From: Amoebidium appalachense
Taxonomy: Eukaryota > Protista > Ichthyosporea
Reading direction: 5' to 3'
NCBI GenBank assembly: GCA_963693365.1
Contig: CAVNZM010000019.1
Location: forward strand, 165,621 to 229,620
DNA: 64,000 nucleotides
Positions 13,768-62,745 of this stretch are shown here, piece after piece. How positions within the stretch are numbered: position 1 is the first letter of the stretch; each line of letters starts with the position of its first letter. The notes under the pieces are model-generated. The model did no database searches. It was not told the origin of the DNA and saw nothing but the letters and a program-made list of their open reading frames with translations. Position numbers and translations under genes: made by a program.

Positions 13768-13777
13768 TGACAGGGGG

Positions 13778-24152: not shown

Positions 24153-24370
24153 AACCTCGAACCTACAAACACGTCGATATCGTGACGAGAGAACGGCTTG
24201 TTTCTGTAGCGGCGTGTCACTTGGGCCTCCAGTCTGCGAGTGGTGGCGTTGTCCACGTTGCTGCGGCTTTTATACTTACGCATCACGGCGCTGAAAATGC
24301 GCTGGAGGTTGCGGTTGCCAGTCAGGCGGAGGAGGCCGAACCGTTTGAGCTTGCGCTTGGCGAATGGCAT
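24149..24370 (-). CDS. small basic protein
   Basis: 73 aa, R/K-rich; its stop overlaps the next start. Confidence 0.45.
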   Translation of the reverse strand: MPFAKRKLKRFGLLRLTGNRNLQRIFSAVMRKYKSRSNVDNATTRRLEAQVTRRYRNKPFSRHDIDVFVGSRL

Positions 24371-41441: not shown

Positions 41442-41469
41442 AGCAGTCGCACGGGCAGTGCCCGTCACA

Positions 41470-45652: not shown

Positions 45653-46795
45653 TCAAACAAGTGCCGGCTCCATGGCAAGCGGCTGGACCCCCGTGTACTT
45701 GGACTCCAGGAGGTCCACCACGTCGCTGAAGTTGTGTGTGTGCTGTGTCTTGGGCATGTGCAGGCACAGCCAGTCCCGTGCCCTACTGAGCACCGTGTAC
45801 GCCTCGAGCACCGTCATCTCCGTGCAGTAGGTGACGTTGCGCTTCCACCCCTCGATGATCCGGCGCTTGATGGCTCCCTGCACTGCCGTGCGGGCAAGCA
45901 CCACGCTCACGCGCCCCTCCTTCTCGTCCCAGATGCTCACGCCGATGGTGTCCTTGACGAACTTGCGGATCAGCCACGCCTCGCCCGATGTCTGGTCGGA
46001 GAACAGCGCACTCACCACGCTGTTGGCAAAGTTGAGCAGGCGTGCGCGCAGCACCTCGCATCCGACGTCCAGTGCACACTTGCCCACGTCATCGGGCAGC
46101 ACGCGCTCGTTGAGCGTGTTGGGGTCCGAGTTGATCTGCTCGCGCATCTGGCGGATGGCCCCGTTGCGCAGCGCAATGGTCAGCCGCTGCTCGTCCATCA
46201 GCTCCATGGCAACCTTCAGCAGCTTGGTCTTCTCGGCCACCAGCTCCTCCAGCTGCGCCTCGCGGGCCGTGCGCTTGGCCGCGCGCTCGGGGGTCTCCTC
46301 GACGCCGTTACGGAAGAACTCGCGCTCCTCGGGCGTGCTGTTGGTGTAGCGGGCCTCGATGTCGTCGATGAGCGACAGGTCGCCGGCGAGCAGACGCGAC
46401 ATGTACGCCGCGCTGGTGCGGCGCACCTCGTGTGCACGCTTGCCGGGCAGCAGGTAGATGATCTCGAGCAGGGTCTTGAAGGGGGCCATCGGGGTGGGCT
46501 TGCTCATGCCTGGCAGGCGAATGTCGACTTGACGTCATCACCTGGAGTAAGTTCTGTCCAGTCAAGTCAGACCTTACTGCCGGTAGGTTTGACGATTGGG
46601 GCGCTCTGACTGGTCATTTTCATGTCATGCCAAGCCTTGTGTGCGGCATTGCGATTCCCCAGCACCAGCGCAATGGCGTCCAGAACACTGGCCTTGTTGG
46701 TAGCCTGGTCGACTCGCACTACCGGCGTTCTTGAACATGGGGAACTGCTTGGCGAGGCTGTCCATGTTGATGCTGGCTGGGGTAGGGTTGTCCAT
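45653..46795 (-). pseudogene. Bro/antirepressor-like DNA-binding protein, frameshifted in the 5' part
   Basis: INMDSLAKQFPMFK / VRVDQATNKASVLDAIALVLG / TPMAPFKTLLEII..LAGDLSLI; paralogous to 47304..47762. Confidence 0.55.
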
Positions 46796-47115
46796 GTTGA
46801 TGGGAGTGTTTCGGGATCCGTGTTGCTGGAAGGGCTCCTTGGGTGGACTGAATGATTACTACAGACGCGCGCGACTCCTTTTATACCTTTGGATGAGACC
46901 GTCCAAATTGCCGAACGGGCAAGTCGTGACTGAATTTCATGAGCAGCAAGCCGCTTTGCGATTCTCAATCCTACTGGAGTAAGATTGATGTGATTGGCCG
47001 AATTCATCTCGATGACGTCATACATCACCAACCCCACCGTTTCCACCAATCAAATCGACGTTCCTGAGACGTTACCAGTTTTGGTCTGGTCAATTTTTCA
47101 AGGTTAACCACGAGT

Positions 47116-47762
47116 TCATGTATTGATTTTCTCTGCCAACTCAAAAATATCACTTACGACCTGGTACACACTAAAGTCTTCTGTGTGTGGGTTGTATCGT
47201 AGCCACCTGCACCCCAGTTGTTTGGTGATGTGGTTCTGGCGTTCTTCTTCGTAGATAGGGTCGCGGTCATCGTGGTTGTGCTCATCACATTCAACCACGA
47301 GGTTTAGACGTGGGAAATACAGGTCCACTCGGTAGGGCTCTGACATAGAACTGTGGATGGCTGTCGTAAACAAGCCGTACACTGGCGAATGATGCTGATG
47401 GTCTCACTCTCGACCGAAGTCCGCAGCAGCGCCACAGGAAGATCTGTCAATCCAAACACGTACACCCAGTACCGCTTCTTATTCATAGGCAACTTACAGC
47501 CTTGTAATACGATCCGAACAATTTCCCGAATTGTGTTGAAGGGGGCTACAGGTGTCACGTTGCCACGATTGTTGATTTTGATGCCCCCTGTCCCAGTCAA
47601 AAAACGATGACTCTTCTGTATGCGCATCCAAGCTGTCTTTGCAGCCAACATGTTGCCAAGAACGAGAGCGATGACGTCCAGAATGCTTACTTTGTTGGTG
47701 GAATGGTCAATTCGCACGGTTGCACCCTTCAGCATTGGAAACTCCCGTGTTAGACTCTCCAT
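47116..47762 (-). pseudogene. Bro-like N-terminus fused to a DUF559/Vsr-like endonuclease (frameshifts near 47340-47385)
   Basis: VRIDHSTNKVSILDVI..TPVAPF; YRVDLYFP..LVVECDEHNH..RD..RQ..LGCRWLRYNP. Confidence 0.65.
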
Positions 47763-47986
47763 GTTGATTGCCGGATTGAAAGTTTCAAGTGATGGCGCAG
47801 CATTGAATAGGCTAAAGGCTTTTATACCTTTGAACTTTGAGTTCACTTCGCCACAGACACGGGATCCAAGTCATGAGGAACTTGGCGGTAGCGACATCAG
47901 ATACCGTCTACAACGAATAAATCTCTTGGCGCCCAGGTATATAAGCCCCTCCCCGCTCCCGTCCTTTCATTCCGCCCCCTGGTAAC

Positions 47987-49426
47987 ATGGACGACTACCT
48001 CGCCTTCGAAGACACCGCCGCCGGCCCGCACTTCGGCATCCCCTTCGTCCCCGACGCCTGCCTGGACCACGAGTGGACCCCGGAGCTCGCCGTCGCCTAC
48101 CTGCGCAGCAATGTCGCCCACGTCAAGGGCTGCTCGACGTACATCCTCAAGCAGTGGTGCCAGGACAGGCTGAAGTACGAGCACCGCATCCTGGGCAAGC
48201 GCGACATGCAGGACACGCTCGCCAAGTTCCACTTCCCGCTGCTGGCCGACCGCCCCAACCAGCAGCCCGCCGCCCCCTACCGCGGCCGCGAATACCTCAA
48301 CAGCCCGTACATCCTCATGTACGACCGGCTGGTGTTCGATCCCGCCAGCCCGGACCCGCGCACGGGGGTGTACAAGAAGTCCTCCGGGCCCTACCGCACG
48401 TTCAACCTGTTCACCGGGTTCCGGTTCACGCTGAGCAACATGCCCGTAGCCCGGCGTGACGAGCTGGTGGCGCCCTTCGTCTCGCACGCGCGCGACGTGC
48501 TGTGCGGTGGCGACCCCGGGCTTTTTGACTACCTGATGCTGTGGATGGGCCACCTGTTCCAGCACCCGGCGTCCAAGCCCGGCAGCGCGCTGCTGCTCGT
48601 GTCCAAGCAGGGCGCGGGGAAGAACATCTTCTTCCAGGCGCTCATCGACGCCATGGGGGTCGAGCACTCGGTGTACGTCAACCGGCGCGACCGCATCCAG
48701 AACCACTTCAATGCGCACCTGCAGAACAAGCTGCTGGTGGTGGTCGACGAGGTGCTGTTCAGCAACTCGCGTGAGGTCAACAACATCATGAAGTCGCTCA
48801 TCACCGAGTCGTCCAACATCCTCGAGAAGAAGGGTCAGGATGCCGTGGCTGTGCGTGCGTGCGAGCGCTACGTGCTGCTGACCAACGAGAGCAACCCCGT
48901 GCTTGTCGAGCCCAGCGACCGCCGCTACGCGTGCATGGCCGTCAGCAACGCGCGTGTCGGCGACACGGCCTACTTTGCCACGTTTCACCAACACCACAGA
49001 GACCCCGAGGTGCTGCAGGCCATCCACGACCTGCTCGTGTCCGTGCCCGACGTGCCGCCCGTGCTGCCGCCGCCGCCCGTGACCGACCTCAAGAAGGAGC
49101 TGCGTGGCGCCACGCTTGACGACAACGTGGCGTTCCTTCGTGACATCGCCACGGGCGCAGACGGCTGCGAGGACCTGGCCGTCGCCGACGGCGCTTACGT
49201 GACCACTTTCGGGCTGGCCGAGCGCATGCGCACGTGGGCCGCACGCAACGGCAAGGACCCCGCGGCCGTCAGTGTCAAGAAGCTGGGCGGCGTGCTCGGC
49301 AAGGTGTTTGGGCAGCGCGTCAAGAAGCAGCGGAGCGCGGTGGCGGTGGGGGGCGTGGAGGGCACGGATCCGGAGGAGTACGTGCACGTGTACGTGTTCG
49401 AACACGCGAAGGTGGCGGGGGCGTGA
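47987..49426 (+). CDS. SF3 helicase (D5/NrS-1-like) with C-terminal wHTH-like domain; no primase domain seen
   Basis: Walker A QGAGKN, Walker B VVVDE, motif C LLTN, DRRY. Confidence 0.88.
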   Translation: MDDYLAFEDTAAGPHFGIPFVPDACLDHEWTPELAVAYLRSNVAHVKGCSTYILKQWCQDRLKYEHRILGKRDMQDTLAKFHFPLLADRPNQQPAAPYRGREYLNSPYILMYDRLVFDPASPDPRTGVYKKSSGPYRTFNLFTGFRFTLSNMPVARRDELVAPFVSHARDVLCGGDPGLFDYLMLWMGHLFQHPASKPGSALLLVSKQGAGKNIFFQALIDAMGVEHSVYVNRRDRIQNHFNAHLQNKLLVVVDEVLFSNSREVNNIMKSLITESSNILEKKGQDAVAVRACERYVLLTNESNPVLVEPSDRRYACMAVSNARVGDTAYFATFHQHHRDPEVLQAIHDLLVSVPDVPPVLPPPPVTDLKKELRGATLDDNVAFLRDIATGADGCEDLAVADGAYVTTFGLAERMRTWAARNGKDPAAVSVKKLGGVLGKVFGQRVKKQRSAVAVGGVEGTDPEEYVHVYVFEHAKVAGA

Positions 49427-49553
49427 GGGGGGGGGGGGGAGCTACAATGGTTTGGGTTTTATTCAAAAAGCAACACAGATATAATCAGCCAGCACAGCGG
49501 CCAATAAACAAACAAGCCTTCAGACAAGATCATGGGTGCCAGCCACGCCCATT

Positions 49554-50402
49554 TCAAAGCGCATGCCCGATGTCGCCCACCTGGTTCCACGGTGTTCTCT
49601 GGTTGTGCATGAATTCGGGGATGTCCCAGTACTCCATGCCGCTGTTGTTGCCGTAGATGGCATGGATGATGTTCTGCCGCAGTGGGAGACCACCCGCTTC
49701 CAGGGCATGCTCAACCTGCGCGAGCCAGGGGTCCAGCCACGTGGTTGTCCATTGCTGCACAGCAGCCTGCAGCTCCTGGAAGGACGTGCCTCCCGGTGCG
49801 GCGGCCTCGGGGGCCTCGTGGTCTATCCCGGCCTGGTACGCCGTCTCGGGCGGGGGCTGCGGCTGCGGAAGCACCACCAGCTTCTCGAAGAGCAGTGCGG
49901 GCATGATCCAATACGGCCACCTCCTGACGCCCAACTGGGCCTCCAGAAATTCCTCCTCCTCCTCCTCCTGCTCGCTTGTAGAGCCGTCCAAGGTGACAGC
50001 TTCCCAAAACACCCACCCACTGCTGGTCAGTTTCATGCCGTATGACGTGTCGTCCATTTGCAGTTGCAGGACGTAGTAGTAGGGGCTGAGGCTGGTATTG
50101 GCAGCGGGATGTCCGGGGCGATACCGACCACTGCCGTAGTCGAAGTTGCATCTAAGACGCCAGACCTCGCTTATGGCGCCGCTGAATACGTTAATGGAGT
50201 TTTCTATTCCCGTGCCATCCGGACCCGTGGTGGTTACCGGTGTTATCACGGGATGGGCAATCCTGTATGCAGACCCCTGCTGTCTCCATGTCACATCCCC
50301 GTCTTCAACACCATATGCTGGATCCATTTCATTTAGAAGCCCCACCAAGTCTTCCTCCGTGGTGATCTGGATTGGGTCCCAGCGTGTGGTCATTACAGCC
50401 AC
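49554..50402 (-). CDS. hypothetical protein; C-terminus paralogous to 59228..59647
   Basis: LQAAVQQW..WLD..V.HALEAGGLPLR..YG.N. Confidence 0.55.
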   Translation of the reverse strand: MAVMTTRWDPIQITTEEDLVGLLNEMDPAYGVEDGDVTWRQQGSAYRIAHPVITPVTTTGPDGTGIENSINVFSGAISEVWRLRCNFDYGSGRYRPGHPAANTSLSPYYYVLQLQMDDTSYGMKLTSSGWVFWEAVTLDGSTSEQEEEEEEFLEAQLGVRRWPYWIMPALLFEKLVVLPQPQPPPETAYQAGIDHEAPEAAAPGGTSFQELQAAVQQWTTTWLDPWLAQVEHALEAGGLPLRQNIIHAIYGNNSGMEYWDIPEFMHNQRTPWNQVGDIGHAL

Positions 50403-50685
50403 ATATCAAAATGTATGAACATTGCCCGAAAGAACCACCGACGTGTTGCTTTATTCAAAAAAGCAGCATGATACACAGATACATAATTATGTCGCAGACC
50501 TCCTCTTGGGAAACCGTCACACCCAAGCCAGCACGCCAACCCCCCCCCCAACCCCAGCAGACTTTCTCCCGGAAGCACATCAAACCAACTTCCATTAGCC
50601 CTCCCATGCTAACACCATCCCATCAAACCAACCCCCATCTAGCTCATGCTAACACCACCCCATCAACCCCCCCCCCCCTCAGCCC

Positions 50686-51549
50686 TCACTCAAGCTCCGC
50701 AACAACCTTCATCACCCAATCATACCCCTCCCGCAGGCGCTGCTCAATCATCTCCATGTCCTGAACAAAATAGTGGTTGCCCTCATCCCACCAAACGGGA
50801 ACCTCCACCGCCCACTCATCGATCGATGCCGCAAGAGCAGAGTCTCTCTCCTCCGCCCCCCACACATCGTCCGAGTCGATACGTTTCCCGGGAGGGTACT
50901 TCGGATCCCTCTGCACTCGATCAAACAGAAATATCTCGCACTGCCGGAGCACGTTGCCACTTGCAAGCTCCCCGGGTGTGAGCGCAAAGGGGACGAGGTT
51001 TGGACGGGGAGAACCGGGGGGGCGGGGAACGTAGGCGAACTGGCCGGGCCCCTCCCCGCCCTGGCGGCGGTGGACACGTTCGGCAATCCGATGGCGCAGC
51101 GCTTGCTTGTTGCGCTCCACAGCATCCTCCGCCGACCAAAAACCCACATACCCGTCCTTAACCGCCCGAGCCGCCTCTGCCATGTCGTGGAGCGCCTGCG
51201 CCACCGCCCGTGCCTTAGCCGCGCCCACGACGTTGCGCCCAGGCTGCTGCAGGTACTGGCGCAGACCCGGCACGACGGACTGTGCAGCCACTGCGCACCC
51301 CCCGAACTCCGTGACCAACGGACGCACCTTGTCGCGCGCGGGCCCGACGGCGTTCTCTGCGGCGACGAGGGCAAGGATGGCGTCCTGGCAGTGGTTTAAT
51401 TCCCTGCACACCTTCACATGCGCGGGGATCTGGTCGCTGTGCATGTCAGCGACACAAGCGCGGCACTTGACCATGTATTTGTCCTTGGTGTTCTTAGTGA
51501 AAAGGTGATCGGTCAGCCATTTGTAGCTGCGCTTGCCTACTTGTTCCAT
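50686..51549 (-). CDS. protein with an N-terminal BED-like zinc finger
   Basis: HLFTK..VKCRAC..IPAHVKVC. Confidence 0.55.
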   Translation of the reverse strand: MEQVGKRSYKWLTDHLFTKNTKDKYMVKCRACVADMHSDQIPAHVKVCRELNHCQDAILALVAAENAVGPARDKVRPLVTEFGGCAVAAQSVVPGLRQYLQQPGRNVVGAAKARAVAQALHDMAEAARAVKDGYVGFWSAEDAVERNKQALRHRIAERVHRRQGGEGPGQFAYVPRPPGSPRPNLVPFALTPGELASGNVLRQCEIFLFDRVQRDPKYPPGKRIDSDDVWGAEERDSALAASIDEWAVEVPVWWDEGNHYFVQDMEMIEQRLREGYDWVMKVVAELE

Positions 51550-51889
51550 GGTGTGTGTGTGTAGAAATGGGGGTGCAAAGCGAAAAATCAGTAAAAGGCG
51601 ACCTAACAAGCGACTTCAAAGCCTTTGATGTTGACACTACAGAAGGTGTGTGAAAGTGACACCCTATCAGCTGTGCCGTGCCCTTAGAAGCCAATTCCCA
51701 ACTGATGCTGACGAAATGATATCCGATGGGCTGGAACAGTCACGCGTTTGATTGGGAGAATGCTTTCAGATCCAGATCACCAGACTGCACGATTGGCTGC
51801 TGGGGATTGGATCACACCCAATTCAAGATCCAATCAGATCCTGCGAAGAGCAGGCAATGCCAGTGCTTCAAGATTTTTACTAATGACAG

Positions 51890-52045
51890 CTGATGGCTTT
51901 TTCTCTCTTCCCTTCCACTCATGTCACCCGCTTATACCTCAATGACCTCCGTATCCTCAGGAGATCGATACGACTTGCTGGTGTCTACACTTCGCTCTTT
52001 CCGCCCTCCAGTCTCATAAGTCGGTCTCTTTCAGACAGATCACAG
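51890..52045 (-). pseudogene. decayed copy of the PD-(D/E)XK nuclease gene
   Basis: ccctccagtctcataagtcggtc and caatgacctccgt closely match 56250-56340. Confidence 0.7.
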
Positions 52046-52091
52046 CTCAGAGCCTATCCAAGATCTTCAACGCTTTCATCAATCATCGAAC

Positions 52092-52206
52092 AGCGGCCGG
52101 GGGGCCTGGGGGCATGCGTGGCTCGCCCGCCCCGTGCCGACCTGTGAGACCACTGTGCCTCCCCGGCCGTGCATGCCTCGCGTGCCCCTCATGCCCCCGC
52201 CCCGCT
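52092..52206. repeat. GC-rich hairpin repeat, copy 1
   Basis: shares GGGGCATGCGTGGCTCGCC and GTGAGACCACTGTGCCTCC exactly with the copy at 57081. Confidence 0.75.
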
Positions 52207-52471
52207 CCTAGGAAAAAGCAATCGGCGAACAGGGTCCACCCCCGGCACCTGTTCTCCAAGGATCCGGGAGACATGGTTGGGGATGCCATGGTGTTCTCTT
52301 GGGTTCCGGGAGACATGGGGGGGACCGGCGATGCTGTTCTCTAGCAAATTACGGGCCAAACGTTCATGGGCACTGCCGTGTTCTCTCTGGTTTGTGGAGA
52401 AATCGGTGGACTGGGTAGGGGGCGGGGGCAGGAGAACAGGGTGGTGAACGCGCAGGTGGATATGGGCCGGG

Positions 52472-53338
52472 TTGTTGCCGTGTGACGTAAAGGTCGATTT
52501 TGATAGTTTGTGGTACTTTATCTGTCGGTTCAACACCGTGATGTCTCAACTCAGCGAAGGGGCTGTTGTGCGCTGCCTCCACCTGGTGCGCACGTTTTTG
52601 GATAACGATAAGAGCAGCGCTTTGTTCATGCAGGGATACACAACGCACCACCTAGTGTTATACATCAAGCACCTGATGGAATTGGAAATAAACGAAAAGG
52701 TCCCAGTCGAACATATTGAGAGGCTGATCTCCTGCCCCGATGAAACGTCCGAACACACGCGCTCATCGAAGAAACTGAAAAACGTCGTTATAGCAGTTCG
52801 CGAGCTGTTCCCCACACCGTGGGTTTGGAAGGGGATTGATCCAGGCACGTTTACGGTGGAGCTCGCTAGGGAGGTCCATCGCAAGGTCATGGACGGGCTG
52901 CTCGATAGCGCTGGACGGTATCGGGTGCGCTTTGCGCTTCCCGCAGGCTGCAGTCATCAGTACCTTGCACCGTTCAAGATCGAAGAGGCTCTCAAGCGTC
53001 TGTTCGAAAGGACACGCACCGAACTCCAAGGCTGCAATGACGTTCTCGGTGCCATACAGGTCACCGCCCGTTTCCTCGGGGAGTTCCTCTACATCCACCC
53101 GTTCAGCAACGGCAACGGGCGCGTCGCCCGTCTGTTGGTCAGCGTGCTGCTCTCGCCCTATATTGCCGTTCCCCTCTCGTTGTACACAGACCGCAGCTCC
53201 CGCGAGCGCTACCACTCGCTGCTGCTGGCCGCGCAGAGCCAGCCGCCGCCCCACGACTACTCCGAGCTGGCGGCCTTCGTGCTGGACTGCGCAAGGGCAA
53301 ACCTGGTCTCGGTGTGCAACGCCCTGGATTTGGAATGA
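52472..53338 (+). CDS. Fic/Doc family AMPylase
   Basis: HPFSNGNGRVAR motif; GRYR flap. Confidence 0.92.
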   Translation: MLPCDVKVDFDSLWYFICRFNTVMSQLSEGAVVRCLHLVRTFLDNDKSSALFMQGYTTHHLVLYIKHLMELEINEKVPVEHIERLISCPDETSEHTRSSKKLKNVVIAVRELFPTPWVWKGIDPGTFTVELAREVHRKVMDGLLDSAGRYRVRFALPAGCSHQYLAPFKIEEALKRLFERTRTELQGCNDVLGAIQVTARFLGEFLYIHPFSNGNGRVARLLVSVLLSPYIAVPLSLYTDRSSRERYHSLLLAAQSQPPPHDYSELAAFVLDCARANLVSVCNALDLE

Positions 53339-53370
53339 AGCCGTCAACTCTTATCGCGCCCTACATCAAC

Positions 53371-54246
53371 ATGGACACACCCTCCCAAGCCAGGACACGT
53401 GTGCGGATCCTGCTGCCCGGGGGCGGCGTCAAGGGCTGCTTCCAAGTCGGGTTCATGCAGGGGATGCTCGCGTCGGGGCTGTACCAGGTCGACAGGGTGT
53501 ACGGCACGTCCGTCGGCGCGCTGGTGGCGCCGTTCGTGGTTGCCGACCGCCTGGACGACCTGGCGCGCGAGCTGGGGAAGCTGAAGTGCGTGGAGGACAT
53601 TGTGGAACCGTGGGGCGGCGCAATGGCGCTGCTTCCGAAAAGCTGGAGGACGGTTGTGGGGTCAATGCTGTACGGGGCGGCGTACAGCCGCTTCACCCTG
53701 CAGGAGCGTGCGGCGGCGCTTCTGGAGGGCATCGACGCGGACATCTACACGCGCTGCCACTGCGTCGCCTGGGACTTCCTCAACAAGAAGGAGCGGTGGT
53801 TCACAGGGCCCGAGTACCAGGTCGGCATGCGCGCGTCTTCGGCCCTTCCACTCGCGGTCCCCCCCGTCGAGTACGACGGCACCGTGTTTCTGGACGGCGG
53901 GGTCTCTGAGCTGGTGCCCCTCACCAAGGCACTCGAGGATGCCGCAGATGGGTTCGACGGCATCTACGTCACGGTGCTGTGCGACTCGCTGGCGCACTGC
54001 CCCGCAGAATCCGTGCCAAAAACGGGCATGGAGCTCTGCTATGCTCTGCAGCGTGACTCGGGCACCGAGCTAGCGGCCACCGAGTTCGCCAACCTCCGCA
54101 CCCGCCTCGGAGACCGCCTCGTGGTGGTCGCTCCGGAGCGGAGGCTGTTTGCGTCGCCCATGGACGTCGACCCCGGGAAGGTCGCGCAGGCGCTTGCGGA
54201 TGGCCGCACGGCGTTTGCTGCCTGGGCCGCCGCGGCACGCCAATAA
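53371..54246 (+). CDS. patatin-like phospholipase
   Basis: GGGVKG, GTSVG, DGG motifs. Confidence 0.92.
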   Translation: MDTPSQARTRVRILLPGGGVKGCFQVGFMQGMLASGLYQVDRVYGTSVGALVAPFVVADRLDDLARELGKLKCVEDIVEPWGGAMALLPKSWRTVVGSMLYGAAYSRFTLQERAAALLEGIDADIYTRCHCVAWDFLNKKERWFTGPEYQVGMRASSALPLAVPPVEYDGTVFLDGGVSELVPLTKALEDAADGFDGIYVTVLCDSLAHCPAESVPKTGMELCYALQRDSGTELAATEFANLRTRLGDRLVVVAPERRLFASPMDVDPGKVAQALADGRTAFAAWAAAARQ

Positions 54247-54281
54247 ACCCCCCGGGTCCAGTCCATATCTGCCCCACCCAT

Positions 54282-54429
54282 CCGGGCCTGGGTGGCTGGG
54301 GGTGGCCGGGGGTGGCCGGGGGTGGCTGGGGGGGCTCCTGTGTCCCCCCAGCGCACGTGCCTCGCCCGCCTCCTGGTCCTTCCGTGCCCCACTTGCCACT
54401 CCCAGCCCCCCAAGCCCCGGGCGCAGTGT
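54282..54429. repeat. GC-rich hairpin repeat, copy 2
   Basis: G-rich arm (GGTGGCYGGG x4) and C-rich arm; shares TGGGTGGCTGGGGGTGGC with copy 3. Confidence 0.65.
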
Positions 54430-54545
54430 CTCTTTTGAGACATATTGCAAGACCTGCTTGCTCACTGGTGCCAGGTTTATTGGGTGATGGTCCAAAGCAC
54501 CTTTGCCCCGATTCTGGGGGGGGCGGTGGGGGCCTGGGGGCGCTC

Positions 54546-55235
54546 CTAATCCTGAAAGATCCTTGAAGCCCACAGGTAGTAGCAGTCTGACTTGCCACTG
54601 GCACCTGTTGGTGGGTGCAGTGGCCATTTGCAAACTCTAGGTTCGAGCGTGCATTTTGTGTGTCCAAGAATTTTTGTAATGGCCATCCCAAATGCCCGAG
54701 TGCTTGGCATAGGAGTTTGGGCAGCGTTGACGTTGTGCCATTCCTGAAAAAGCTGATACAAACCGGTTGATGTCACGGCACAACCGTCGTGGATGAATGT
54801 GAATTTTTCACATCCGTTTCTGTGTGACAACAGATCCCTTAGGAATTGCATCTCATTGTTAGCTGATGCGCACTCTGCCACTGGCTCTTCGGCCTCCACA
54901 TCCAGCGCTGGAAGTGGGCTCCAAATGAGCTGCAGGGTGTCTGGTTCGATCGTGGCTCTGATGCCCAGGCGCGTCATCGTTTCGATCGCCACTTTCAAGC
55001 AATCTAGGGACGCAATATCGAACAGATGTACCCGAGGTCGATGGTTCGGACAGTAGGCTTGATAGCACAGGACCTGCCCAACGGCGGATTTCCATTTAGA
55101 AGCGCGCTTGACTTCGATGACTTCCGTGGCCGTCAGCAGGTCGATCCGTCCTGCGGGCGTGCGTACCTCAATGGTTCCACCTTCGAGCTTGGCCAGCCTA
55201 TCCCTGACATATGACTCGTCGTAGGTAGCCATCAC
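54546..55235 (-). CDS. PD-(D/E)XK nuclease fused to a helicase-type wHTH domain
   Basis: GRIDLLT..EVIEVK..WKSAVGQVLCY; C-terminal FLRDLL..GCE..VTSTGLYQLFQEW..FGMAITKILG. Confidence 0.75.
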   Translation of the reverse strand: MMATYDESYVRDRLAKLEGGTIEVRTPAGRIDLLTATEVIEVKRASKWKSAVGQVLCYQAYCPNHRPRVHLFDIASLDCLKVAIETMTRLGIRATIEPDTLQLIWSPLPALDVEAEEPVAECASANNEMQFLRDLLSHRNGCEKFTFIHDGCAVTSTGLYQLFQEWHNVNAAQTPMPSTRAFGMAITKILGHTKCTLEPRVCKWPLHPPTGASGKSDCYYLWASRIFQD

Positions 55236-55285
55236 TTACAACACAAGAAAATAAAAATCACCCGCAGTCGATTGTTGGTTGCCAG

Positions 55286-55382
55286 TGGGTGGCTGGGGGT
55301 GGCTGGGAGGGGCCTGTGTGCACCGGTGCCCCGTCAGCCACGCGTGCCTCCTGTGCCTCGCGTGCCCCCCAGGCCCCGCGCT
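55286..55382. repeat. GC-rich hairpin repeat, copy 3
   Basis: begins right after the zinc-finger stop; CGTGCCTC..GCCTCGCGTGCC shared with copy 4. Confidence 0.65.
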
Positions 55383-55641
55383 AGTTTCGGGTCCGATTCG
55401 GGCTCCCCGGTTCTTTGGTGTGCTGCTGCATGTGCCGCTTGAGGCTCAAGGCATACCGAAACTGCCGCCCGCACCCCGCATGCGCGCACACGTGCCGCAG
55501 AATCCCCGCATGCCTGTCGCTGTGCGCCGCAAAGTTGCTGTTGCGGGTGGTGGAGTAGCCGCAACCGTCGACTGTGCACCGATACACCTTGTACGGGCGG
55601 ACCATGATGCCTTGGGGGGTCTTGCACGTACACAGATACAT
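55381..55641 (-). CDS. C2H2 zinc-finger protein (two fingers)
   Basis: YRCTVDGCGYS..FAAHSDRH and HVCAHAGCGRQF..LKRHMQQH. Confidence 0.85.
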   Translation of the reverse strand: MYLCTCKTPQGIMVRPYKVYRCTVDGCGYSTTRNSNFAAHSDRHAGILRHVCAHAGCGRQFRYALSLKRHMQQHTKEPGSPNRTRN

Positions 55642-55677
55642 GGTGTTATTGAGGGGGGAGAAAATAATTTCCAACGG

Positions 55678-56373
55678 CTACTGCTGCTCCGGGCTGTTGA
55701 TGACCTGACCATCGATCCTGTAGCAATAGACAACCTTGTTTGTTTCGGACACGCGAGGGTGGTCTGGCCAGCGCGTAACTCTTTTTACTTTGGCAGCTTT
55801 GGGTTTTCCCAAAATCTTCCTGAGGGTCATGCCGAAGATTTTTAAACTTGGAGCCGCTGTGGAAGAGAGATTCAGTTTATGCCATGAAAGGTATAGCTGG
55901 TACAGCCCCGATGATCTCACCAAGCAGCTATCCTTTATAAATGTCATGTCCTCACATCCGTTGGTATGGGAGAGCAAATCTCTTAAAAATTGCCGTTCTA
56001 CTTGCTTCCTCTGGGCATTCTTGGGCTTTGTAGTTTCTGATTTGGGGTTTGGACCCCATATATGCTGCAGTGTATCATGTTCTGCCGTGACGGTGATGTT
56101 ATGACGCATCATGGTCTCCACAGCTACCTTGTACGTGTCAGCGGAGGCATAGCCATATAGATGGACTCGCGCACGATGGGTGGGGTAGTGGTCTTTGTAT
56201 GCAAGTACCTGCCCCATCGCCGATTTCCAATATTGAACCTTCTTTACTTCAATGACTTCTGTGTCCGTCAGCAGGTCGATCCTACCGGCGGGAGTATGCA
56301 CCTCGCTCTTCCCACCCTCCAGTCGCATAAGTCGGTCCCTCACCAAACCTTCGTCACACAGCGTGCTAGCCAT
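55678..56373 (-). CDS. PD-(D/E)XK nuclease fused to a helicase-type wHTH domain (paralogue)
   Basis: GRIDLLTDTEVIEVK..WKSAMGQVLAY; FLRDLL..GCED..GLYQLYLSW..FGMTLRKILG. Confidence 0.75.
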   Translation of the reverse strand: MASTLCDEGLVRDRLMRLEGGKSEVHTPAGRIDLLTDTEVIEVKKVQYWKSAMGQVLAYKDHYPTHRARVHLYGYASADTYKVAVETMMRHNITVTAEHDTLQHIWGPNPKSETTKPKNAQRKQVERQFLRDLLSHTNGCEDMTFIKDSCLVRSSGLYQLYLSWHKLNLSSTAAPSLKIFGMTLRKILGKPKAAKVKRVTRWPDHPRVSETNKVVYCYRIDGQVINSPEQQ

Positions 56374-56430
56374 TGTAGTTGGCGCTAGAAAAAATATACA
56401 AGCCACGACACCCGATGCTGTGCATACCAG

Positions 56431-56531
56431 TGAGGGCTTGAGGGGCTGTGGGTGGCTCCCGTGGCACACGTGCCTCGCGGGCCTCGCGTGCCTCGCATGC
56501 CCCTCAGGGCCCCCCAGGCGCCCCCGCAGTG
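56431..56531. repeat. GC-rich hairpin repeat, copy 4
   Basis: TGAGGGGC..GCCCCTCA stem; truncates the adjacent helicase fragment. Confidence 0.65.
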
Positions 56532-57004
56532 TTGAACGTACGGCTGTGGGTAGACGTGTATCGCTGGTTACGGACACGGGTCTTGGGGTCGGGGTCGCTG
56601 GGGTCGAAAACAATACCACCGTCGTAGACGACCATTTGGCTGCTGTCCAGATGCCATGAGCCCTTGTATGTTTCCACCTTTTTGCCCGTCGGGTTGTATT
56701 TGAACTTGTACTTGGACAGCATGTCGGCCACCTTCTTCTTGGACTTGACCTCATGGACGAATCTCCCATCCTTGAAACGCTTGAAGAGGTACACACCGTC
56801 CGGGCGGGAATAAGCCACTAGTGTACGACAGAACGTGTGGATCTGCTCCTCGGTCCACTCGTAATTCTCGACAATGTCTGCGTCCAACCAGTTGTTGCGC
56901 GTGCCTGTTGTCCGCTCAAACTCTTCGTATGTCGCCAGTTTGCGCTGCTCGTTCTCGGACATGTCCGCGGCGATCTGCATGTATAGATCGTCCATGTTGT
57001 CCAT
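56504..57004 (-). pseudogene. N-terminal fragment of the SF3 helicase family (no P-loop)
   Basis: EWTEEQI..VAY..YLFK..VFDPSDPDPKT..RTFN matches the N-termini of the 47987 and 57230 helicases. Confidence 0.75.
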
Positions 57005-57080
57005 TGTAGAAAGAATGGGGAGAAAATGAACCCGGGTCTGCTTAAGTACCCCCCCCCCTATAGCTAGCATCTGTTGGTTC

Positions 57081-57220
57081 CTGAGGGGCTGTGAGGGGCA
57101 TGCGTGGCTCGCCTGCCTCGTGCTGCCCGTGAGACCACTGTGCCTCCTCTTCCTCCCCGGCCCCATGCCCTGTGTGCCACCCCCAGCCACCCCCAGCCCC
57201 CCATGCCCCCGCGCAGCGTT
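57081..57220. repeat. GC-rich hairpin repeat, copy 5
   Basis: two 19-nt blocks identical to copy 1; lies just after the helicase stop. Confidence 0.75.
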
Positions 57221-57229
57221 GGGGAATGG

Positions 57230-58714
57230 CTAGGCCTGTTTGATCTTCTCGTGGTCCAACAAAAAAGCGTACGACGTTCCGGTTGGGGACAGCGCAGGCA
57301 TCCCAGGTGCAACAGTCAGGTGGTTGTTCCGCACCCCTTTGTTGGGTCCAAGTATCTTGCTGAGCATGGAGCCCATGCTCTTCACACTGGCGTACGGGAT
57401 GCTCTTGGTCTTGCCGTTGAGTGAAAGCCACTCCTTGTACAGATGCAGCATCGTGGTGGCTGTAACACGGGCCCCGTTGGGAAGTTGCTCGATAGACATG
57501 CCCTCGGCGCCTGTCGCCATGTCTTTGAGAAACAGGAGTTCATCTGGCTGTGTCATTTCACGCAGTTCGCACCAGAGTTCGGTCTTGGGTGGAAGCGGAA
57601 GAACACGGGGGACATTGGGCATCTTCATGAAGTAGTCACAGACAGCCTGTAGGTTTGCAGGGTCTTCGTAAAATCGTGTAAAGTTCTGGTAGTAGGCTCT
57701 TGGATAGACCACTGGGGTCCCCTGCAAGCACACCCAACGACGGTCCGATTCCTCCACCCGAACGGGCCATTTCTCGTTTGAAAGCCAGACATAGCGTTCG
57801 AAACTCTTCACACACACAGCGTCCTGCCCCTTTCGCTCGATCATGTTCACCTGCTGGGTGATGCGAGCCTTCATCAGGTTCGCAATTTCCCTGTTACTGC
57901 CAAGACCCATTTCGTCGCACACAACCAGTAGCTTGTTCTCCAGATGCGCGTTGAACTTCCCCTCCAAATGCTCTCTGTGTGTGATATAACCACAATAACA
58001 ACTGCCAATGATGTTGGCGATGATCTCCCACCAGATGTTTTTCCCTATTCCCTGTATCGATCTCATGAGAATCGCTGTGCCAGACTTGACTTCAGGATAC
58101 TGGAAGATGTGTGCGACCCATTGCATCAGATAATGAAAGCTCTCCCGGTCATTGTTGCAAAGCACCTCAAAGGCGTGGCGTTCGAACAGGGAGACAGAAC
58201 CTGACTGCCAAGAAACGTTCTCGGGTTGGTGGGGTAGCGCCAATCCCTTGAACATGTTGTATGCCCGGCAACGTTGGACAAGGTATGCTGGCTTCGTGTT
58301 TCCAGTGCGTGGGTCTGGGGATGACGGGTCAAAAACAAAACAGGTGTAGTATGGAAAGCAAGGTGTTTTCAACACGTTTGCACCGTTGTACGTATCCTGT
58401 TTGCCGTTTGCATGCGGAACAAGCTGAAATAGAAAGGCTCCCAAAAACTCTTGGAGTGCAGCCTTTGTCTTGCGATGGTGTTTGTACAGGTTCGTGTCCT
58501 GGTCAAAAATCTTGACCAGATAGGCACCTTCCCTGCTGACATATGCGATGTTTGGGCTTAAAAAGGCAAACACCTCATCCAAAGTCCAATTTGCGCGTTG
58601 AACACATGTGTGGGGGTCAAACAACATGCTATGGTCAACCGAAAGGTCTTCGAATGCATCATAAGATGGTGGAACACTCATGATGCTTACAGTAGACTGA
58701 AGAAAAAAAAGCAT
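57230..58714 (-). CDS. SF3 helicase (D5/NrS-1-like) with C-terminal wHTH-like domain
   Basis: QGIGKN, VVCDE, WLSN, DRRW; paralogue of 47987; likely start near 58681. Confidence 0.88.
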   Translation of the reverse strand: MLFFLQSTVSIMSVPPSYDAFEDLSVDHSMLFDPHTCVQRANWTLDEVFAFLSPNIAYVSREGAYLVKIFDQDTNLYKHHRKTKAALQEFLGAFLFQLVPHANGKQDTYNGANVLKTPCFPYYTCFVFDPSSPDPRTGNTKPAYLVQRCRAYNMFKGLALPHQPENVSWQSGSVSLFERHAFEVLCNNDRESFHYLMQWVAHIFQYPEVKSGTAILMRSIQGIGKNIWWEIIANIIGSCYCGYITHREHLEGKFNAHLENKLLVVCDEMGLGSNREIANLMKARITQQVNMIERKGQDAVCVKSFERYVWLSNEKWPVRVEESDRRWVCLQGTPVVYPRAYYQNFTRFYEDPANLQAVCDYFMKMPNVPRVLPLPPKTELWCELREMTQPDELLFLKDMATGAEGMSIEQLPNGARVTATTMLHLYKEWLSLNGKTKSIPYASVKSMGSMLSKILGPNKGVRNNHLTVAPGMPALSPTGTSYAFLLDHEKIKQA

Positions 58715-58734
58715 GCATGCTCCTTTTATACCCT

Positions 58735-58851
58735 GTTGAAGAGTTAAAGCTGTTGAAGCTGTTGAAGGGGGGTTGTTTAAAATAGAAGTGTGACGGGCTG
58801 TGTGTGTGTGTGGGGTGATCTCGCGGACCTCAACGGTTCAACGGCTTCAAC
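58735..58851. promoter_or_regulatory. inverted GTTGAA/TTCAAC iteron cluster (candidate origin or operator)
   Basis: GTTRAA at 58735, 58743, 58752, 58761; YTCAAC at 58829, 58837, 58846. Confidence 0.55.
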
Positions 58852-59227
58852 AACAACCCATCATAGTGCCCCGCCCCCCCCCCCCCCCCCCCCTACCACC
58901 TGTACACCAGCACGCCGGCCAGCAGCACGAGCAGCACCATGCATGCAAGCGCTATGCCCCTCCACATCGAAGCGCTCTTGAGCTGTGCATCATGGTCGTC
59001 CAATGAAGTGCCCATGTAGAGCATGAAGCGCGTGCTGTTGTCGATGGTCAGGTGGTACTCGTGCGGGTCGGCGGCAATGTCATCCCTGCGCACCCACGAG
59101 TTACTCGGGTTGTCAAATCTCAGGTTTGCAATGTTCGGAGAAGTCATACCTTCCGAAGAGATAGTTTGGAGCGCCCCCTCCCCAGCAACTCGGGGAGCAC
59201 ACACAGAGATTATGCATCGCAGTGCTA

Positions 59228-59647
59228 ATGGAACCTAAAAACCGCTGGGACGTAGGGCGCGCCAAGACGGAGGACGCATTGCTCTTCGAGACCCTTGTCA
59301 AAGAACCGCCCCTGACCAAACCTCGGACCCTGCTCGAGTCCGCCTACCGTGCCGGAGTGTCACACGGCGCGCCCAGCACCATGGCGCCCGGCGGTGCAAC
59401 CACCGAGGACCTGAGCACAGCACTTGAAGATTGGGGTGAGCGCTGGCTTGACTATTTTTTCAAAGAGGTCGGCCACGTGGTGGAGGCAGCAGGGCTGCCG
59501 CTGCGCGAGGGTGTCTTTGACAGAGCCTACGGGCGCAACCGCAACCAGGAGTTCGAGGGGTGGGTGCGGACCTTGATGAGTGGAACGAGGGGACCCCCTG
59601 GAGCAACGCGGGCAACGTGGGGCATGCCTTATAGCAAAAAATCTTAA
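59228..59647 (+). CDS. hypothetical protein, paralogue of the 49554 C-terminus
   Basis: LSTALEDWGERWLD..VGHVVEAAGLPLREG..YGRN. Confidence 0.55.
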   Translation: MEPKNRWDVGRAKTEDALLFETLVKEPPLTKPRTLLESAYRAGVSHGAPSTMAPGGATTEDLSTALEDWGERWLDYFFKEVGHVVEAAGLPLREGVFDRAYGRNRNQEFEGWVRTLMSGTRGPPGATRATWGMPYSKKS

Positions 59648-60302
59648 ACAGTTTCGGGGTGAATATATAATGTAAATCCAACGATCCAAATAATGGTTTT
59701 GCAACTTCACATCGGGGTGAATATACAATGTAAATCAAACAACAGAAATAAAAATATCAATGTGCTTGGCGCTTTACTCGCACACTCTGTCGGAGCACCA
59801 GTCTCCGGTATTTTGGCATGAACTCGTCTGCATACACGTACTTCCTTGCACGTCTGTGACCCCTCTTTTTGGACCGACCTCTTCGTTTTGACATGACGTT
59901 CACCCAAAAATTGTGGGCAACCTCTCCTAGTGAAACCATTTCCTCCTCTTGCACCCAGCCGCGCACAGGTTGCTGGTCCACGCACCCTCCTCGAGCTCGA
60001 GGGACACCTTGCGCCACCCGGATTCTGCGCGCTTGATCTCGCACGCCACCACAATGTCTCCCGGTCGCACACCTGCGGTCCACATGCTTGTGCAACAGCG
60101 CACGCTCAGCACCTCACACTCCGATTCGGGCCCACGTACACACACGCCGAAACACGCAAGCGCGCACTCGTGGTCATGCAGCGCCTCGAGAACTGGCACC
60201 TTGCGAATGAGTGTGCGCCGACGCAGGCGGGGACTCTGGAGGGTATAAAAGCGTGTGTCTGACACGGGGAGCTGCCAGTCTGAATCTGCACCAGAACCGA
60301 CC

Positions 60303-60821
60303 ATGGCTTTTGAGCAGGACCTGAAGCTATTTGTCAATCGGCTGTCGCTGCTTGTATCCAACATGACGTTCGACTCGAACGGCGCCGGGAGGGTGGCAAG
60401 CCGGCCGCTACAGCTCCACGCAAGACTCGGCAAGGGCGACACGATGCTGTCGGACACGATGCTGCCGCTGCAGTCGGTGGAAACGTCGAACAGGACTGGA
60501 CTCAACCACCTGGTGTTTTCGACGTGTCCACTGGAGGGGGCCGGGGATGCGGTGACCATCGACCTGGATTGGGGCAAGTCGTTTCGGCTGACCTGGGAGC
60601 GCTGGGACACCACGCTGTCGCTGCTGCCACCGAGGGATCCGACGGAGGAGGAGGGCATGAGCGAGGGACGAGCTGTCCCCATGGAGGCAAAGAGAAAACG
60701 AACAACCCTTCTGCGAATCGACTTTTTGAAGGACTTCCTTTGGCATGACATGGGGTGCGACATTCTGTCGCTGCAGTTATATGAATCAGTACAGAAAAAT
60801 AGGCGGCAGTGTAGAGAATAA
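60303..60821 (+). CDS. hypothetical protein
   Basis: ATG at 60303 preceded by GGGTATAAAA at 60241. Confidence 0.6.
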   Translation: MAFEQDLKLFVNRLSLLVSNMTFDSNGAGRVASRPLQLHARLGKGDTMLSDTMLPLQSVETSNRTGLNHLVFSTCPLEGAGDAVTIDLDWGKSFRLTWERWDTTLSLLPPRDPTEEEGMSEGRAVPMEAKRKRTTLLRIDFLKDFLWHDMGCDILSLQLYESVQKNRRQCRE

Positions 60822-61098
60822 TGCAGGTATCGCGCAGTGCGTGTGTGTGTGCGACTGCGGGGGCCCCGGATGGTGCAGCACGCGTATATAAGCAGGGCCA
60901 CACCCAACGTGTCGTCCGAGCGCATGCTTGTGTGTGCGCACACAAATTTGATTAAAAAGACCACACGCGACCCAAAGACCACCCCGGGTCAGACCAAGGA
61001 CCCCCCCCCCCCCCCCCAAAACCAGCACACCCGGCTCCGCCCACTCGGCCGTCACCCCCAACGGAGGTAACTAAAAAAGCCAACGTTTTCCTTTGCCC

Positions 61099-61415
61099 TG
61101 AGTAATTCAAGTTACTCTGAGCATAAAATTAATGGTTTTTTATTTGTTTCATGAGTAACAATATCTTACTCAGGGTACTCATTCTGAGTAACACAGACAA
61201 GTTTCCCCCACTAGATGTTACTCACCCAAATATGGTAAAGGTTTCCTTTTTAGGTATAAAAATATGCAATTGTCATATAGTGAGTAGGATGAGTAGAATG
61301 AGTACGTACTCATCTACTGTGGGCTACGGGTATACCTAAATCTCAATCCAAAAGGAAATTGGAACACCCGGGGGAGACCAGATGAGTAGGTACTCAAGCT
61401 ACTCATCCTACTCAC
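61099..61415. promoter_or_regulatory. AT-rich TGAGTA/TACTCA iteron cluster (candidate replication origin)
   Basis: 14 hexamers counted; 16-bp palindrome 61298-61313; 17-bp inverted repeat 61280-61296 / 61399-61415. Confidence 0.65.
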
Positions 61416-61690
61416 CCCATCAAAATGGCCTCAAAATTTAGGTGGTACCCCTTACACCTCCCCTGGACACACAAACTCATTCCATTAACTTTGTCCCCGA
61501 AAAGCTTCGAGAGGCATTCGCCCACTTGTCGCAGGCTGGCTGTCTGCGGGTTCTTGCCGTTTAAGCGCATCCACTCTTGAAGATGAAGGTGGACTCGGTT
61601 GCTGTCACAAACTTTCGGTCGGTGAGGGCCATTCTTTCCAGTGTCCTCCCCATGACAACATCCTTCAAAAAGGACAGACAGTCAGATCGG
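61412..61690 (-). pseudogene. remnant of the helicase C-terminal wHTH-like domain (one frameshift; absent from the ORF track)
   Basis: manual translation: DCLSFLKDVVMG..FVTATE / HLHLQEWMRLNGKNPQTASLRQVGECLSKLFG..GYHLNFE. Confidence 0.7.
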
Positions 61691-61698
61691 GAAAACGA

Positions 61699-62343
61699 TG
61701 TTCAGACGTCTCCTTAGGATGGTGCAGACGTGTACTTAAAGGGTGGGGCTGTGCAGACGTGTACTTAAAGGGTGGGGCTGTGCAGACGTGTACTTAGGAT
61801 GGTGTAGAGGTACTTAGGGCTGTGCAGACGTGTACTTAGGATGGTGTAGAGGTACTTAGGGTGGTGCAGACGTGTACTTAGGGTGGTGCAGACGTGTACT
61901 TAGGGTGGTGCAGACGTGTACTTAGGGTGGTGCAGACGTGTACTTAGGGTGGTGCAGACGTGTACTTAGGGTGGTGCAGAGGTGTACTTAGGGTGGTGCA
62001 GACGTGTACTTAGGGTGGTGCAGACGTGTACTTAGGGTGGTGCAGACGTGTACTTAGGGTGGTGCAGAGGTGTACTTAGGGTGGTGCAGACGTGTACTTA
62101 GGGTGGTGCAGAGGTGTACTTAGGGTGGTGCAGACGTGTACTTAGGGTGGTGCAGACGTGTACTTAGGGTGGTGCAGAGTGTACTTAGGGTGGGGCTGTG
62201 CACGAAGTGTACTTAGGGTGGTGCAGACGTGTACTTAGGGTGGGGCTGTGCACCACAGTGTACTTAGGGTGGTGCAGACGTGTACTTAGGGTGGGGCTGT
62301 GCACCACAGTGTACTTAGGGTGGTGCAGAGTGTACTTAGGTGG
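61699..62343 (+). repeat. 22-bp tandem array GTGTACTTAGGGTGGTGCAGAC (roughly 28 units)
   Basis: read directly; homogeneous centre, degenerate ends. Confidence 0.95.
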
Positions 62344-62745
62344 GTGTCTTGTGGTGAAAGTAAAGTTTATGGCATACAGGCAGATGTGTGCTTTAAGCCT
62401 TAGGGAACTGTGGGCAGACATGTCAACACTTGGGCCTATGGGTAGACGTGTACACACTTAGTGTATTTGTTTGTGTCTCTCATGGTTATTTTATAGCATG
62501 AAGCACTGCAAAAAATGGTGTATGTTTCCGTGGTCCACGTACACAGAATCCTTTAATATGAACACAAGTGATTGTATAGAAAAAGAGTAAGTACGTACAT
62601 GATAGTCTAGTCAGATTACAAAGAACAAATCAACTTGGACCGAGTATATTCAAATACAAACTAAAAGAGAAAAGAAACAAATAAATCAAGACCGATCAAT
62701 TCAAATACAAATCAAAAGAGAATGCCACTTAGTCGACCAATCAAA

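Follow-up and report, generated by a model that had tools for sequence, protein, structure and literature searches.

In Odn (Gp88) of vibriophage ICP1 a T5orf172 nuclease has acquired a RepA_N domain, 42% identical to that of a RepA_N initiator, and the chimera cleaves the replication origins of satellites (PMC8263062); related T5orf172-RepA_N nucleases with swapped domains have been found again in coliphages (PMC10055350). Among initiators, the Rep protein of SaPI elements binds opposed penta- and hexanucleotide iterons directly downstream of its own gene through a C-terminal winged helix (PMC9371898), and in PriRep5 the wing reads the iteron bases (bioRxiv 10.64898/2026.10.17.759575). In entomopoxviruses, mobile, repeat-flanked accessory D5-like helicases lie beside T5orf172 nuclease genes (PMC11296320). 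Here we describe a locus that resembles each of these systems in part. It lies in a 64 000-nucleotide stretch (the window) of contig CAVNZM010000019.1, from the Amoebidium appalachense assembly GCA_963693365.1, where 14 kb hold two helicase genes (H1, H2), two nuclease genes (N1, N2) and several broken pieces, and where helicases and nucleases end in one and the same domain, the tail:

47987–49426, plus strand: H1, primase-less DUF5906/SF3 helicase of 479 amino acids (PF19263, E 3e-19); tail 49118–49423
57230–58714, minus strand: H2, primase-less DUF5906/SF3 helicase; probable start 58681; tail 57233–57547
54546–55235, minus strand: N1, predicted PD-(D/E)XK nuclease (amino acids 1–97) with winged-helix tail 54549–54860
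55678–56373, minus strand: N2, predicted PD-(D/E)XK nuclease with winged-helix tail 55681–56004; about 231 amino acids
51922–52029, minus strand: decayed remnant of an N1/N2-type nuclease, N-terminal motif only, with stops and frame changes around it (tblastn E 1e-8)
56504–57001, minus strand: third helicase of the family, present as an N-terminal fragment without the ATPase part (blastp E 4e-18 to 1e-9 against five family members)
61412–61690, minus strand: frameshifted remnant of a helicase-type winged-helix tail, in two frames (tblastn and profile)
61722–62344: 22-bp tandem repeat, about 25 copies, abutting the tail remnant

N1 and N2 share with Odn the union of a mobile nuclease domain and what would be the origin-binding domain of an initiator, with a donor identity of 42% for Odn and 46–50% for N1 and N2; binding domains have been swapped repeatedly and frameshifted copies occur in both systems. 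However, Odn joins a GIY-YIG-type T5orf172 domain to RepA_N in a phage and has a proven satellite target (PMC8263062), whereas N1 and N2 have a PD-(D/E)XK domain, an SF3-helicase tail, a eukaryotic giant virus as host genome, both domain orders in their family and repeat arrays in cis. They are not members of the Odn family, and probably work like Odn. The helicases resemble SaPI Rep and PriRep5 in pairing an SF3 ATPase with a C-terminal winged helix, with opposed iterons directly downstream (PMC9371898), and differ from the SaPI Rep-ori arrangement in the lack of a visible primase partner, in G-rich arrays without a clear AT-rich centre, in their tandem cassettes and in the nuclease chimeras. 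With the entomopoxviruses the locus has in common repeated accessory helicases in a nucleocytovirus, repeat flanks, adjoining nuclease genes and signs of recombination; the nucleases there are of another class, and the main text of that study does not use the word ‘winged’, nor did we see a domain shared by helicase and nuclease described there (PMC11296320). The same minimal nuclease domain is found in KilA-N/Bro-N nucleases of mimiviruses, HaV01, FirrV-1 (A34) and TetV-1 (BFVD models, Foldseek E 1e-8 to 2e-4), but these Nucleocytoviricota proteins differ in their partner, which is KilA-N or Bro-like and usually N-terminal, and behind tail-less relatives no array was found.

In the open-access literature we found no fusion of a PD-(D/E)XK nuclease to an SF3-helicase tail, although supplements could hold such architectures, and no origin-directed nuclease reported for a eukaryotic virus. 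A preliminary description of this DNA knew of no account of the fusion; the concept had been published for the phage protein Odn (PMC8263062). PF03288 is present in a protein cluster of Bro-N, KilA-N and T5orf172 members (PMC8715426), so tail–nuclease fusions may sit unremarked in annotated genomes.

Helicases and nucleases share a winged-helix tail

The domain of about 100 residues (100–110) that closes H1, H2, N1 and N2, and that survives in the 61412–61690 remnant, had been noticed in the preliminary description, and all five copies were recovered at those places (genes at 47987, 57230, 54546 and 55678, and the remnant; tblastn E 8e-12 to 5e-5). In this tblastn search of the window the four intact tails matched one another with E 8e-12 to 2e-6 and the remnant with E 5e-5, while the best unrelated hit among the matches listed had an E of at least 0.04. 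The alignments are significant, each of the six pairs of intact tails outscoring 2000 of 2000 shuffles, and a profile of 13 tails run against the six-frame translation gave six matches: the four genes and two remnant pieces. The invariant columns (F,L,D..G..V..W..N..S..G..K..G) agree with the motif proposed earlier, except that the G of its ‘NG’ is present only in the helicases.

AlphaFold2 models of the tail have three helices and a wing, with a pLDDT of about 85–90 (89.7 for the H2 tail). Judged by their titles, the 50 listed VIA matches of the H2 tail are mostly winged-helix proteins (Z 3.9–5.7); they include NrS-1 616–718 (Z 4.4, root mean square deviation (rmsd) 3.5, 79 residues aligned), the PrimPol of African swine fever virus (ASFV) 830–907 (Z 4.3, rmsd 3.5, 76 aligned) and RFX1 (Z 4.1, rmsd 3.7, 74 aligned). 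The corresponding part of the N2 model resembles the winged helix of ORC (Z 6.6). By model and fold search, then, the shared tail is a predicted winged helix-turn-helix (HTH), a three-helix bundle with a beta wing. For the likeness to phage P4 alpha that had been suggested, a specific match was not obtained, and the absence of P4 alpha from the 50 listed VIA matches excludes nothing. Foldseek returned nothing for the H2 tail in the Protein Data Bank (PDB) at E ≤ 0.001, and sequence searches of Pfam, PHROGs and PDB gave nothing for tail or nucleases. PF03288 (Pox_D5) matched one of the 13 tails weakly (E 0.092), and a word-index search for longer proteins bearing the tail returned only the three input sequences. 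By profile–profile comparison the window tails are homologous to those of DUF5906 primase-helicases (hhalign probability 89%, E 2e-6).

Both helicases score above the PF19263 cut-off and retain the SF3 motifs (Walker A GxGKN, Walker B vvDE, the N of motif C and the arginine finger DRR). No primase family of Pfam was found in either (479–494 amino acids), and the PHROG primase profile phrog_1156 aligned to them only in its last third, from position 522–529 of 855. We conclude from their sequences that H1 and H2 are D5-like SF3 (DUF5906) helicases predicted to lack the N-terminal primase domain of the D5 type. Close full-length relatives are rare (P0018, P0019 and P0037).

The open reading frame (ORF) of 372 amino acids listed for N2 begins too early. 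The nuclease domain of the N2 model has 97 residues and a PD-(D/E)XK fold, with a VIA match to NucS (Z 8.7, rmsd 2.6, 88 aligned). N1 and N2 both keep the catalytic residues E8, D33, E42 and K44 together with Q55xxxY59, and across the family the E...D...E-x-K motif is present in 163 of 167 nuclease domains and GQxxxY in 166 of 167. Motif and fold thus agree in predicting NucS-like PD-(D/E)XK nucleases. Pfam had no match for N1 or N2 at E ≤ 0.1, and the N2 model none in PDB by Foldseek at E ≤ 0.001; the ESM Atlas offered a sub-threshold NucS_C lead only, plus a KilA-N cluster for a homologue. In homodimer prediction N2 scored 0.34, against a mark of 0.42.

One nuclease lineage has taken up helicase tails repeatedly

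The nuclease family comprises 2124 proteins at E ≤ 0.001, and the statements made here rest on the best 150. The search for further fusions that the preliminary description had proposed was productive: nuclease and tail are joined in eight of the 150, one of which (P0001) was part of the query. Six have the order seen in N1 and N2 (P0001, P0032, P0034, P0035, P0036 and the partial P0039) and two, P0033 and P0058, have the tail first; P0037, also among the 150, is a helicase. Scans of IMG/VR and JGI gave no locus with the fusion and no close relative of the virus. A full nuclease–tail fusion, P0179, is annotated by NCBI as a hypothetical protein in a Daphnia sinensis assembly, on a 183-kb contig that is probably viral.

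The nuclease tree, built from 57 domains, places the 12 that bear a tail together on one side of a branch (SH-aLRT 93, short of the star mark). The tail tree looks different: nuclease and helicase tails are intermixed, and the nuclease tails fall together in 0 of 200 bootstrap trees. Their single grouping was rejected by an approximately unbiased (AU) test (p 0.0096, 9 versus 5 rows), which was set after an earlier tail tree was known and from which P0180 and P0179 (long or near-duplicate) were dropped and to which P0058 was added. These trees show that one nuclease lineage acquired helicase tails more than once, and at either end. Identity to the tail of helicase P0037 is 50% for the N1 tail and 46% for that of N2, compared with only 23–28% to those of H1 and H2, so the nuclease tails were not taken from the resident helicases. 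Repeated swaps together with the decayed pieces support the rapid turnover postulated earlier.

The same nuclease domain has other partners. Among 50 nuclease rows scanned, KilA-N occurred in four, Rha in two, Bro-N in one and HTH families in four, and in BFVD the domain lies behind KilA-N in mimiviruses and HaV01. This variety speaks for generic module shuffling, in which a selfish or accessory nuclease gains any DNA-binding domain, the tail confers general DNA affinity or self-repression at an upstream array, and the arrays came along with a helicase 3′ end. Consistent with it, another nuclease fusion, P0142, carries a C-terminal domain like that of window gene 45653–46507 (E 1e-22), and Pox_D5 already sits within the Bro-N/KilA-N/T5orf172 protein cluster of nucleocytoplasmic large DNA viruses (PMC8715426). 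The C962R tail of ASFV, likened to the P4 alpha origin-binding domain and to RFX1, is moreover not known as a specific DNA binder, its direct DNA binding being unclear (PMC10516667). Against such shuffling, a single nuclease lineage has returned again and again to one tail family, in both orders. We consider it unlikely as the full account, while a serious contender.

Iteron-like arrays lie around the nuclease genes and H2

Three types of array are present in the window, built from GTTGAA, TGAGTA or the degenerate unit G[GTA]GGC:

52100–52200: array A, opposed G[GTA]GGC units, 9-bp period
52250–52390: TGTTCTC/GAGAACA repeat cluster without a 9-bp period
54289–54420: array B, opposed G[GTA]GGC units, left 10-bp and right 9-bp; about 125 bp after the N1 stop
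55286–55378: array C, upstream of N1; three left units at 10 bp and, on the right, six at exactly 9 bp
56433–56513: array D, upstream of N2; overlaps the helicase fragment at its broken end
57083–57210: array E, beginning 20 bp after the H2 stop
58733–58852: array F, upstream of H2; GTTGAA units in opposed orientation at 9 bp, without a cognate tail adjoining in the downstream sense
61098–61415: arrays G and H, 14 TGAGTA units; inverted arrangement z −8.7

A detector for exact-hexamer arrays was positive in four of 277 window tiles, all in the GTTGAA and TGAGTA regions. The repeats singled out beforehand at 58735–58851 and 61099–61415 are thus real, and are the only detector-positive places; the arrays next to the nucleases are others, G-rich and made of G[GTA]GGC. 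The five G[GTA]GGC arrays (9–10 bp period) all lie between 52.1 and 57.2 kb, where almost all the gaps flanking N1, N2, H2 and the fragments contain one, the arrays around the nucleases being direct repeats; together with the nuclease remnant 51922–52029 and the helicase fragment 56504–57001 they are additions to the preliminary description. An earlier, stricter scan of the window had found two clusters only. The shuffle control (mean 0.01; 0 of 100 reach five) overstates the significance of these arrays, because the motif was picked after the sequence had been viewed.

Array H, three plus three opposed TGAGTA units at 9 bp, begins at the stop codon of the tail remnant. Two pairs fit the Rep-ori layout, the remnant followed by its TGAGTA array and H2 followed by array E; H1 does not. 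The spacer between iteron sets is 51% AT in H, 45% in F and 29–36% in A, B, C and E. A hairpin or terminator reading of the G-rich arrays was rejected, since they fold no better than shuffles (z −1.8 to +0.2).

For comparison we used 26 helicase loci picked by protein homology alone, one of which (L023) was dropped for too little downstream DNA; the detector had been designed after the window arrays were known and before these loci were inspected. An opposed hexamer array lay within 400 bp after the stop in 23 of the 25 loci, or 11 of 13 after dereplication, compared with four of 438 other windows, four of 172 other ORF ends, 0/8 upstream windows, 0/13 at the wrong period and 0/650 shuffles. 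The commonest gap between units is 9 bp (28 counts), and each locus (L011–L035, L207) has its own hexamer. In six loci chosen for typing (36 of 66 ORFs scanned), three look polinton-like (L011, L017 and L018, with A32 ATPase, GIY-YIG and PriCT-2) and two are tailed phages (L024 and L026, with a lambda-like terminase). An unrelated phage record found by the TGAGTA pattern (L171/L207) has the same 9-bp TGAGTA array just behind a DUF5906 helicase; the scan for TGAGTA triple repeats gave 139 loci, with the opposed layout in only one, and no matches to the three profiles used within the DNA fetched for them. DUF5906 helicase genes, we conclude, carry their own opposed, mostly 9-bp hexamer array after the stop, a correlation that holds across these loci. 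Together with the DUF5906 homology of the tail, the 11 of 13 dereplicated loci bear out the earlier proposal of a helicase-type domain accompanied by iteron-like arrays.

The position of arrays A, C and D, shortly before the starts of nuclease genes, is operator-like, as self-repression by a randomly acquired tail would have it. Generic shuffling fits less well with the retention of the catalytic residues and with the absence of arrays after tail-less relatives of the nuclease (0 of 41 loci).

The direct-repeat arrays flanking the nucleases, and helicases without a primase, also invite a cooperative explanation: the nuclease would nick the array of its own cassette, enabling a helicase without primase to begin strand-displacement copying or mobilization, much like the nicking role proposed for the nucleases beside the mobile entomopoxvirus helicases (PMC11296320). 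P0001 and P0037 may even be neighbours, both records having a longest contig of 7624 bp. Yet the tails expected to serve one array are far apart, at 23–28% identity between N1/N2 and the resident helicases and 33% between P0001 and P0037. Rolling-circle initiators form a covalent protein–DNA link and PD-(D/E)XK enzymes do not. Nor was a circle seen: a candidate excised circle (52174–57145) was rejected, its joint, the sole back-joint, resting on about 20 bases common to arrays A and E and so on the similarity between array copies. A cooperative initiator strikes us as improbable.

An island that seems to vary between genotypes

Part of the island is held by 20 listed runs. In run X17 the depth of single contigs is 797 and 303 in the flanks, 20 over the Fic region and 5–8 for the N1/N2 pieces, and smaller drops over N1/N2 occur in runs X1, X5 and X7; contig depth is not copy number and alleles split depth, so these figures only suggest an island that varies between genotypes. 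Seven of the 12 listed joints within 54.2–57.4 kb end inside an array, and several skip N1 or N2. Runs X5 and X7 contain a diverged copy of N2, with 53 differences over 393 bases, which cannot be aligned at 85% over residues 169–194, comprising the turn, helix 3 and the start of the wing. Two X7 contigs hold other sequence past the break of the helicase fragment, indicating that the truncation is not in every genotype. Between N1 and N2 themselves the wing, the part that reads iterons in PriRep5, is the most divergent, with 12 of 37 residues identical compared with 62 of 98 in the nuclease part.

These observations bear on a housekeeping role, in which the proteins would act for the viral genome as a whole, initiating or resolving its replication. 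In its favour, little is known about giant-virus origins, and next to the island there is a long tandem repeat, possibly the sign of a genome end. The presence of three array types and of several broken copies is hard to square with such a role, and so are the low, variable cover in different runs and the lack of an array at L010, the sole helicase from a giant-virus bin among the fetched loci. The related idea that the nucleases resolve the origin of their own virus is unlikely, given helicases without a primase and their location in a variable island. We regard housekeeping as highly improbable.

An origin-directed nuclease?

The explanation we prefer, to which we would give nearly an even chance, is that N1 and N2 are Odn-like origin-directed nucleases, predicted to act in a conflict among mobile helicase-origin cassettes. 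Its starting points are a predicted winged-helix tail common to both protein classes and the correlation between family helicases and an opposed 9-bp hexamer array of their own right after the stop. By analogy with SaPI Rep, the tail would read the array and load the helicase. A single nuclease lineage has, by the trees, captured such tails repeatedly at either end, and by analogy with Odn a captured tail would aim the nuclease at an array. A break at the array of a co-infecting genotype or small parasitic replicon would either block that cassette or be repaired from the nuclease-bearing allele, which would explain why rearrangements fall at arrays and why so many decayed pieces of helicases and nucleases have accumulated. 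Arrays read by a P0037-type helicase would be the likeliest substrates, with the flanking G[GTA]GGC arrays as local candidates.

Several observations weigh against this explanation. The tail is missing from 141 of the best 150 nuclease rows, its fold scores are middling (best Z for the H2 tail 5.7), and, as the nuclease domain also combines with a variety of other DNA-binding partners unrelated to each other (KilA-N, Bro-N, Rha, HTH), shuffling needs no conflict. Four of the five G-rich arrays show no clear AT-rich centre (29–36% AT), and the window scan detected no array downstream of H1. Wings are often variable for structural reasons, and one N1 allele has six replacements and five silent codons, none altering helix 3 or the wing. 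The joints have sides of just 21–67 bases, for which mis-mapping between array copies is possible. No target replicon was found for N1 or N2, and both are themselves flanked by arrays: either self-cutting is somehow prevented or the flanking arrays are not what they cut. The arrays beside N1 and N2 are accordingly either spared, through another specificity, methylation or repression, or hitch-hikers.

A broader version of origin-directed cutting is possible, if on balance doubtful. Here the nuclease lineage would steal the origin-reading SF3 tails of polinton-like viruses and mobile cassettes and cut their iteron origins, a reprogrammable anti-replicon system locked in an arms race that would leave swapped tails, changed hexamers and decayed cassettes behind it; from the same data a general tail-to-hexamer code could be read, by which to locate origins in viruses with DUF5906 helicases.

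Genomic setting

The GC-rich window carries nucleocytovirus hallmark genes, namely an A32-like ATPase, PCNA, YqaJ, a DNA ligase, a histone-fold gene and DUF5760, and by the ligase, histone-fold, A32-like ATPase, PCNA and YqaJ genes it is identified as Nucleocytoviricota (giant virus) DNA. The A32-like ATPase had no close relative among IMG/VR sequences. Other features are as follows:

13228–14485, 17430–18158, 28706–29491 and 41425–42147: minimal ATP-dependent DNA ligase, histone-fold protein, A32-like ATPase, PCNA, YqaJ exonuclease
52472–54246, plus strand: Fic-domain and patatin-like genes (Pfam), within the variable island
55381–55674, minus strand: gene for a small C2H2 zinc-finger protein, lying between N2 and array C (PF00096, E 3e-8)

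The Fic-domain and patatin-like genes are likely to be cargo or neighbours of the island. On its right, the 22-bp repeat at 61722–62344 has replaced the upstream part of the tail remnant; it contains TTAGGG and could be the sign of a genome end or the scar of a recombination. On its left, 45653–47846 holds three related Bro-like genes or pieces and an ORF for a DUF559-type nuclease (47116–47382), where contig depth is likewise low, as in the island.

Further away, a T5orf172-domain gene at 21386–22723 (PF10544, E 5e-4) lacks the winged-helix tail. A C5 cytosine methyltransferase (PF00145) is encoded at 8432–9346; that it could shield GC-rich arrays from self-cutting is speculation. At 24276–26948 there is a DDE transposase of the IS630/Tc1 type, extended at its C terminus by a long proline-rich stretch. 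At 844–3733 an RGS-domain gene (PF00615, E 3e-13) adjoins two genes for proteins that look hydrophobic by eye and are predicted to pass the membrane several times, a possible G-protein signalling module of a giant virus.

Implications

Whatever the role of the nucleases, origin recognition is directly testable here, with domains of 100 amino acids and 130-bp probes. The association of helicase and array, the arrays being likely replication origins, amounts to a general rule for finding origins in the DUF5906 family, in phages and polinton-like contigs alike. If N1 and N2 are origin-directed nucleases, such enzymes would extend from a phage–satellite system to eukaryotic giant viruses, having been built independently from different parts, and this would suggest how giant viruses fight small parasitic replicons without CRISPR.

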